A stretch of DNA of 64,000 bases, from positions 78,058,001 through 78,122,000 of the forward strand of contig OZ024740.1 of the NCBI GenBank assembly GCA_964016885.1, given 5' to 3'. Below the pieces are notes generated by a model. The model was given only the letters and a program-made list of their open reading frames with translations, was not told the origin of the DNA and made no database searches. The position numbers were made by a program, and so were the translations under genes. How positions within the stretch are numbered: the first letter of the stretch is position 1; the number at the start of each line of letters is the position of its first letter. Shown piece by piece: positions 61,585 through 62,579 of the stretch. The stretch comes from Eledone cirrhosa. Lineage: Eukaryota.

Positions 61585-61723
61585 AATTCAAACGAGATGT
61601 AATGTTCCATTGATATGTTTCCCGTCATATGTGTTATTCATTTCGGCCAGTAAGCATATATGCTCTCCCTTGTTTATTATATATATATATATAGTTATGT
61701 AATAAACAACATAAGGCAGTTAT

Positions 61724-61781
61724 TCCATTTACCAGTGGTTTCTTAAAAGCAAAAAATGTTGCTTTCAATCATCAGAATGAA
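61724..61781 (-). ncRNA. Type I hammerhead ribozyme, family H1 (intact); mirror copy 61878-61935(+) has C3U
   Basis: ttcatt-CTGATGA-ttgaaagcaa-catttt-ttgcttttaa-GAAAC-cact-GGTA-aatgga; 10-bp stem II, 6-bp stem I; in fold-back 61691-61968. Confidence 0.85.
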
Positions 61782-62579
61782 AAAATCCTGGTCTGTTTAT
61801 TGAATTTGGATTTTAAAAAAACGAAAAACAGTTTTTTGTTTTTTAAAATCAAAATTCAATAAACAGACCAGGATTTTTTCATTTTGATGATTGAAAGCAA
61901 AACCTTTTGCTTTTAAGAAACCACTGGTAAATGGAATAATTGCCTTATGTTGTTTATTACATAACTATTAAGCTCTGTTACCTACATAGAGCACTCTTTT
62001 TTCTTGGACTTTTCCGACTGAATTACTTCACATATATATATATGAGAGAGATTTTATGTGTATGCACGTGTGAATGTGTTTGTGCGTGCAAGTTTTTTTC
62101 CACTTGATCTTTTCAGTACTTTTTTTCAAGTCTGATGCTATCTTTTTTATTGATCTCTCTTTTTCGAACTGCTAAGTTATGGGATATAAACTAAGACAGG
62201 GAAACATACGCACCCGCGCATATATATATATACATACACACACAGACACACACACACGTACACCTACACACACACATAGAGTGACACATATATACACACA
62301 TTCTAGATTTCACTTTAACATTATTTATTTCACGCTAAGTTCCGAATCGCAATTTTTTCACTTCCGACGAACAAATCTACTCTCATAAAGTTCACGTTTA
62401 TTTGACACTAAATCCCCTTAATTAAGGTCTTTTAATTAAAGCCCACATCCTTTCACATTGGCTTTAATCTTAATGCCTATTATAATTAACTTTAGTAGTT
62501 CCCTCCGTCACCAACACCATCGACACCATCAATATATATGCTCATTCAGGGTTATATTAAACATACATACAACGGTAGA

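Follow-up and report, generated by a model that had tools for sequence, protein, structure and literature searches.

In the parts of the literature on which we draw, Penelope-like elements (PLEs) can carry an adjacent inverted copy that is 5'-truncated, a tail on one side only, and a hammerhead ribozyme (HHR) in the pseudo-LTR, or pLTR (Craig et al., 2021, PMC8557442). Pairs of HHRs on opposite strands lie 100-700 bp apart in PLEs, and helix II is extremely variable among PLE hammerheads (Cervera and de la Pena, 2014, PMC4209133). Elements of the Hydra clade insert into (TA)n and have canonical HHRs whose helix III is mostly a 9-nt palindrome (PMC8557442). In vitro, the protein of an anole PLE cuts AT-rich DNA on both strands and extends both; it starts reverse transcription at two internal RNA sites that bound the tail, with uncleaved RNA as template, and the hammerhead of this element cleaves only in the presence of the protein and is dispensable for insertion (Frangieh et al., 2024, PMC11167929). 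Octopus vulgaris is reported to have 190 PLE families making up 6.83% of its genome (PMC13282606), and its repeat library may already include the repeat studied here, which we call H1. Published work already describes PLE ends with hammerheads, the turnover of these hammerheads and their occurrence as opposite-strand pairs, and H1 is not a new kind of ribozyme. A search of the literature on PLE hammerheads, octopus hammerhead ribozymes, the Hydra clade and tail stem-loops returned this general pattern; we found there neither the H1 family itself nor a conserved Hydra tail structure, and the part of it on the clade and on tail stem-loops returned no biochemical study of the Hydra clade.

We study H1 in a single 64,000-nt stretch of DNA (the window), which is microsatellite-rich animal DNA with an N gap and in which H1 forms two long inverted-repeat hairpins, near 13 kb and near 61.8 kb. 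With a probability of about 0.8, H1 is the 3' end (a pLTR with a hammerhead motif, plus a tail) of a high-copy PLE that likely belongs to the Hydra clade, and each hairpin consists of two 5'-truncated copies that sit head to head in (TA)n and would have arisen in one insertion. The features at the two loci are as follows.

12969 to 13030, plus strand: heavily 5'-truncated direct copy of the second subfamily, with the short end (15-mer search)
13031 to 13231, no strand: (TA)n/(CAT)n microsatellite separating two short ends (sequence)
13232 to 13330, minus strand: second-subfamily inverted arm that is truncated within the core, with the pairing form of a 39-nt stem II
13331 to 13492, plus strand: direct arm of the second subfamily, with CUGAUGA at 13337-13343, GAAA at 13382 and the tail at 13435-13492
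61670 to 61690, plus strand: left flank, 10 nt (61670-61679) equal to the short-end sequence 61950-61959, then (TA)n (sequence)
61691 to 61829, minus strand: inverted arm, a 5'-truncated copy of the element's 3' end, with the short end and no tail (arm alignment)
61701 to 61801, minus strand: predicted 9-bp outer closing stem of helix I, in which 61801-61793 (with an AAUAAA hexamer) pairs with 61709-61701
61724 to 61781, minus strand: complete type I hammerhead, with stem I of 6-7 bp, core 61775-61769, stem II of 10 bp with a 6-nt loop, GAAA at 61742-61739, palindromic helix III and predicted cleavage 3' of 61730 (arm alignment, descriptor, fold)
61831 to 62031, plus strand: direct arm, a 5'-truncated copy that passes the short end (61968) and stops at the long end (~62031) (arm alignment, contigs)
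61878 to 61935, plus strand: type I hammerhead with C3U at 61884 (alignment; C makes up 99% of summed contig depth at 61884)
61969 to 62031, plus strand: tail of 63 nt, on one arm only, with a predicted 7-bp stem-loop at 61972-61992
62032 to 62043, plus strand: right flank, (AT)n, the target microsatellite (sequence; 26 contigs continue into (AT)n)

The anatomy can be read directly from these arms. A preliminary description had reported hairpins at 13232-13434 (~99-bp arms, 8-nt loop) and 61691-61968 (~138-bp arms), and local alignment bears this out: 13232-13330 aligns with 13339-13434 over 100 columns with 4 difference events around an 8-nt loop, and 61691-61829 aligns with 61831-61968 over 139 columns with 8 differences. 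The two arms of each hairpin diverge from a head-to-head centre; one ends 39 nt past the predicted cleavage site and passes into (TA)n, and the other continues for roughly 60 nt more before (TA)n begins. The sequence common to the two hairpins, also seen earlier, reaches beyond the 13-nt motif then quoted, to ~62031 and 13492. From GAAA onward, the long arms at 61.9 kb and 13 kb have 100 of 129 columns the same, about 12 of the columns being flanking (TA)n. A shared H1 15-mer occurs five times in the window at up to two mismatches (0.59 expected), its fifth site being the direct truncated copy at 12969-13030, which the preliminary description does not mention. Upstream of the hairpins, direct copies are short fragments only, with no full-length copy or direct pLTR seen in the window, and all H1 copies in the window are truncated at most 50 nt upstream of the hammerhead. 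The ten-base match at 61670-61679 may be a tiny third copy or may be chance; the fragment at 12969-13030 is similarly placed at 13 kb.

Contigs from 4 of 10 listed sequencing runs align to 61560-62110 (551 nt) at 80% likeness, with 2,907 placed from one run (X1) and 46, 11 and 7 from the others, and three other organism labels appear among the matching contigs. We do not take contig depth as copy number, and opposite-strand joints are left uncounted because the reference is itself an inverted repeat. Among the contigs of run X1, 29 enter (AT)n at the short end, 61968, and 26 do so at the long end. The ends are discrete, at 61968 and ~62031 in one hairpin and at 13434 and 13492 in the other. 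Contigs from three runs extend upstream of the hairpin centre, with loose ends at 61833 and 61819. Because contigs run upstream of the centre and enter (AT)n at two sites, we find that the hairpin centre is a truncation junction and that H1 forms the 3' end of an element that is longer, abundant and 5'-truncated and that has two fixed ends. In separate scans for the H1 pattern there were no matches in a genome contig collection and none in a viral contig collection; seven metagenome loci, on gene-dense, prokaryote-like contigs and with the hammerhead core in 0 of 7, are taken as chance.

An inverted repeat in an assembly also raises the question of whether single copies were folded back on themselves during assembly or long-read sequencing to give spurious hairpins. 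The window contains an N gap and numerous apparent homopolymer indels, and the junction at 61829/61831 is spanned by none of the contigs listed. We consider an artefact highly improbable all the same, since one pair of arms has 8 differences in 139 columns and the other 4 in 100, three of the eight falling in the 6-nt loop II (p = 0.002) and two of those three difference letters being variants that are common among contigs; in addition, the same asymmetric layout is found at both loci and in other families, and one independent contig joins 61802 to 61907, which is an inverted junction at other truncation points. We give equally little credence to the idea that the hairpins are miniature inverted-repeat (fold-back) DNA transposons in which the hammerhead motif is incidental. 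Such an origin would account for long, near-perfect inverted arms adjoining TA, and the window does hold further palindromic repeats, but it fits poorly with arms that are asymmetric (the tail is one-sided) and whose length and centre differ between loci, with the single-arm copy at 12969-13030, with other copies that continue upstream of the hairpin centre, and with variation that spares the ribozyme core.

Turning to the hammerhead itself, the CUGANGA...GAAA...UH core together with three helices, open at helix I, is found in only one of the four arms, at 61724-61781(-). The earlier observation that one 61.8-kb arm has an intact CUGAUGA and the other a C3U change is correct (61775-61769(-), with its plus-arm counterpart UUGAUGA at 61884-61890(+)). 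A strict type I descriptor with exact core has one match in the window and matched in 1 of 200 block shuffles, and stem II at this locus has a closing run of 10-11 bp (shuffle p <= 0.0001). For 61691-61812(-) the unconstrained minimum free energy fold is the same as the constrained hammerhead fold, at -20.0 kcal/mol; in isolation, the 70-nt hammerhead has only a modest folding advantage over shuffles (z -1.4). Helix III is self-complementary at eight of its nine positions. A U10.1-A11.1 pair stands in place of the usual G-C pair, and a common variant at 61768 (11% of depth there) disrupts it. The ATG in the core is followed by a stop within 10 codons. No hammerhead family came up in an Rfam search of the window, whether at gathering score or with a limit of E <= 10, and E-value scans gave a generic miRNA-like hairpin and weak matches only, all below gathering; this result argues only against filing H1 under an Rfam family.

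The variation among contigs of run X1 is observed to be unevenly spread. Positions that vary at 5% or more of summed depth include 5 of 10 free positions (N7 and four in loop II) and 0 of 16 in the core and helix III (Fisher p = 0.004), a count that excludes position 61884, where the window is the outlier, and that rests on unphased contigs, an 80% likeness filter and perhaps few source copies, so that it is not a covariation test. Three of the 32 positions of stems I and II vary at the same threshold: two turn G-U into Watson-Crick pairs (G-C and U-A) and the third breaks 10.1-11.1. U3 is a 1% variant in the family. Constancy of the core may come partly from shared ancestry. Both loop II types found in the 61.8-kb hairpin are common among contigs, and their presence in one hairpin suggests two template RNAs. 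The plus arm at 61.9 kb may be a mosaic, because its N7 is U, whereas the contigs assigned to it have G there in 99% of depth.

The 13-kb locus carries a second subfamily. The stem II of its minus arm pairs as 4 bp, a 4-nt bulge and 5 bp (p = 0.003), and the arm is truncated such that only GAUGA is left of the core element, with no C3-U4 and no 5' strand of stem I. The plus arm does have the stem I 5' strand, with one mismatch (U-U), and this strand is the 8-nt hairpin loop; its stem II lacks one base and has a closing run of 1 (p = 0.39). Neither arm is complete, so the 13-kb ribozyme has to be pieced together from both. Alignment of the stems II of the two loci is no better than that of shuffles, 66% of 2,000 scoring as high, and the difference, to judge from the sequence, is a module replacement that marks the second subfamily. 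Helix III has a 3-nt UUU loop in this subfamily, as in Penelope-2/5_HM in the available text of PMC8557442.

These results change how the case for a ribozyme should be made. Stem II had been described as unrelated between the hairpins while pairing in both; it is unrelated, and it pairs at 61.7/61.9 kb, but at 13 kb it does so in the minus arm and not in the plus arm. Structure kept despite sequence turnover had been put forward as the best internal evidence, an argument that does not hold, as two unalignable stems amount to one replacement event and yield no covariation statistic. The variation pattern is better evidence for the H1 hammerhead than two unrelated stems II. What survives of the proposal that these are real ribozymes is a lineage-conserved hammerhead motif, for which the variation pattern and the matches to Hydra-clade PLEs speak; the long hairpin is not a ribozyme structure but an insertion scar.

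Now we consider the tail. The tails at 13435-13492 and at 61.9 kb have 42 of 63 columns the same, and none of 2,000 shuffles is as good. Each has one predicted stem-loop, and they have in common a 13-nt motif, at 61985-61997. In a PLE supplement of 584,131 characters this motif, one of three DNA motifs tried there, has two matches, both in Hydra consensus sequences (0.007 expected per 500 kb): one at the 5' end of Hydra-1_Ajap and one in the tail of Hydra-2_Ajap. For two longer H1 motifs there was no match in this supplement or in that of PMC13282606, so H1 itself is absent from these files. On visual comparison, the tails of Hydra-2_Amil and Hydra-1_Crog have a stem-loop of this sort whose inner stems differ. 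We regard the conserved tail motif as a candidate recognition element of the Hydra clade. We also tried a descriptor of a bulged tail hairpin and set it aside: its three sites in the window (shuffle mean 0.71, maximum 4) are not significant alone, it missed the 13.4-kb tail, and the bulged hairpin is less stable than the plain form (-4.1 vs -8.0).

How does H1 compare with the described systems? H1 shares with the Hydra clade insertion into (TA)n and a canonical HHR with palindromic helix III. Its helix III is the same as that of Hydra-1_Obim (Hydra-1_oBim in File S2 of PMC8557442) at 8 of 9 nt, with the middle base alone differing. Hydra-clade elements, Hydra-1_Obim and Hydra-1/2_Ajap among them, resemble H1, as far as the available parts of PMC8557442 describe them, in the (TA)n target, in a type I HHR near the 3' end, in a variable N7, in a non-G-C pair at the base of helix II in many members, in the 13-nt tail motif and in a short end ~40 nt past the cleavage site, and an inverted 5'-truncated copy is noted for Penelope-13_HM. 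By eye, H1 and Hydra-1_Obim differ in stem I, in stem II and in the upstream sequence, which makes H1 a separate family, and the stem II of H1 (10 bp, or the 39-nt insert) is longer than those of the Hydra-clade PLEs described there. The likeness of helix III, the 13-nt motif and the (TA)n targeting together make the Hydra clade likely, and it is from these that we infer the clade.

At the protein level, the Hydra clade is recognised by RWK, DKT, a CxCX5C linker, the lack of CCHH and RT phylogeny, and an EN+ PLE by a single ORF with telomerase-like RT and GIY-YIG. Among 80 non-repetitive ORFs of the window, Pfam gave L1/Tx1-type domains and one sub-threshold RWD match, with no RT or GIY-YIG ORF linked to H1, and a six-frame motif scan of the window found no Hydra ORF remnant. 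With no ORF linked to H1, the assignment to the clade depends on features outside any coding region, and an autonomous family and a non-autonomous derivative would look the same. The L1/Tx1-type domains include the endonuclease, RT and zf-RVT domains of a broken L1/Tx1-type LINE at 5750-11330, which has a 148-bp internal duplication (8569-8861) and an (ATT)n end; three relatives of its RT are named among the 120 matches listed, from Octopus sinensis (59%), Acanthosepion (53%) and Caretta (39%). Two of the three are cephalopods, which fits, but does not prove, a cephalopod host, likely an octopus-like one; the window also seems to hold an octopus SINE.

Two further PLE groups share parts of this anatomy, in what the available text of each source describes. 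The minimal and variant type I hammerheads of PLEs (PMC4209133) are like H1 in their long helix II, their short palindromic helix III, their mostly solitary, truncated copies, their opposite-strand pairs and a strong turnover between families; unlike them, H1 has no extra base between 9 and 10.1 and no G10.1-C11.1, and its helix I is predicted to be longer. PAc, the Poseidon element of Anolis carolinensis (PMC11167929), is like H1 in two discrete 3' ends that bound the tail, in an AT-rich target and in copies that read through the cleavage site, but it belongs to another clade, its ORF begins at stem II and its tail is shorter. The H1 tail, at ~60 nt, also exceeds the 30-40 bp usually quoted for PLE tails.

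The animal non-LTR retrozymes (PMC7229834) also carry a type I hammerhead in a non-coding, AT-rich repeat. If H1 were one, it would be a short non-coding unit spread as head-to-tail tandems through circular RNA from double hammerhead cleavage, and the type I hammerhead with short helix III, low GC, high copy number and lack of a visible ORF all fit, as does the proposal that retrozymes derive from PLE pLTRs (bioRxiv 10.64898/2026.07.22.740005, in its available part). We think it very unlikely, since there is no head-to-tail H1 repeat or array at either locus or elsewhere in the window, and the copies show inversion, 5' truncation at varied points and two fixed end sites in (TA)n. Unlike the retrozymes described in the available text of PMC7229834, H1 has no fixed monomer, and its 10-bp helix II departs from the canonical helix of 4 bp.

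Three more hammerhead families occur in inverted pairs within the window. One pairs 15200-15813(-) with 18130-18634(+) around 2.3 kb of other repeats; its left arm extends into (TA)n through a ~80-nt tail whose stem-loop is like that of the H1 tail, and its right arm ends at the ribozyme, followed by (TC)n. A compact family with a 4-bp stem II and a palindromic minimal helix III has direct and inverted copies within (TA)n at 16292-16515, 24172-24492, 24637-24872 and 24981-25249, with descriptor matches at 16386(+) and 25137(+). The last pairs 36440-36630(-) with 36873-37065(+) and has a stem II insert of 50-52 nt and a palindromic helix III. There are also hammerhead-like cores at 61524-61585(-), a weak descriptor match 110 nt left of the hairpin that lies under other repeat contigs, and at 18709-18770(+), which fails the descriptor.

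The rest of the window is rich in other repeats. A non-coding repeat of ~600 bp has six 5'-truncated copies (16850-17455, 39168-39529, 45561-46166, 48237-48793, 58560-58986 and 59929-60447), of which 6/6 share the same end point in a TA-type microsatellite; we found no hammerhead in it. A 21-kb TA-rich microsatellite array at 37191-58559 includes the N gap (44595-44794) and a strand-reversed block near 46.2-48.2 kb. The palindromic repeats at 2820-3542, 32711-32855 and 55430-55585 contain no descriptor-passing hammerhead and are possibly MITE-like.

Drawing our intuition from the anole PLE protein, the PLE reading of H1 can be put as a sequence of steps in which the enzyme, the order of priming and any cleavage are conditional. 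The GIY-YIG nuclease of the element (its own or that of an autonomous partner) would cut both strands of (TA)n, and each 3' end would prime reverse transcription inside uncleaved element RNA, at a short start and a long start that lie 39 nt and ~102 nt, respectively, past the hammerhead cleavage site. Both cDNAs would run through the uncleaved hammerhead, stop early (at 13 kb, one of them inside the core) and join head to head. The hammerhead would act in the RNA of the source element, probably weakly, as a dimer through its palindromic helix III or with protein help. Read-through transcripts of the hairpins are predicted to form duplexes of -200 and -189 kcal/mol, and whichever strand is transcribed, the sense hammerhead is made after its complement; because it would be locked in this duplex, the genomic H1 copies at both loci are likely inert scars.

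The same duplex can be turned into an argument for function, namely that the host keeps these copies as working ribozymes or hairpin RNAs, either as an on-off pair (C3/U3) or as a source of double-stranded RNA. One arm is indeed intact, and transcription through the hairpin would give a duplex of 138 bp. This seems to us very unlikely, given disabling or weakening changes in three of the four arms, the rarity of U3 in the family, a sense hammerhead that is sequestered in both directions and the lack of a recognised host gene nearby. Nor does the C3U arm serve as the natural negative control proposed for a cleavage assay: it is not a clean or proven null, natural U3 hammerhead cores being known (PMC4209133, available part). 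The same source reports that single metazoan PLE hammerheads may show no monomer cleavage; such hammerheads may need a dimer or protein, so a silent monomer would not refute the ribozyme.

One further proposal, which we hold only tentatively and regard as doubtful, is that the H1 tail stem-loop is a clade-wide RNA signal for Hydra-type PLE proteins that sets the two starts of reverse transcription and is kept, with compensatory inner stems, in elements ranging from those of sea cucumber and coral to those of cephalopods, and that the two arms of one hairpin are copied from two RNA molecules. More broadly, H1 is of use as material, being a family of very high copy number that has two fixed ends, numerous inverted insertions and separable source lineages. 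It could test how PLE inverted repeats are built (from one template or two) and whether there is selection on the hammerhead, both of which are open in the available parts of PMC8557442 and PMC11167929. If the two-molecule proposal were true, the hairpins would be genomic evidence for dimeric, two-template insertion, and thousands of such hairpins per genome would make the mechanism countable.
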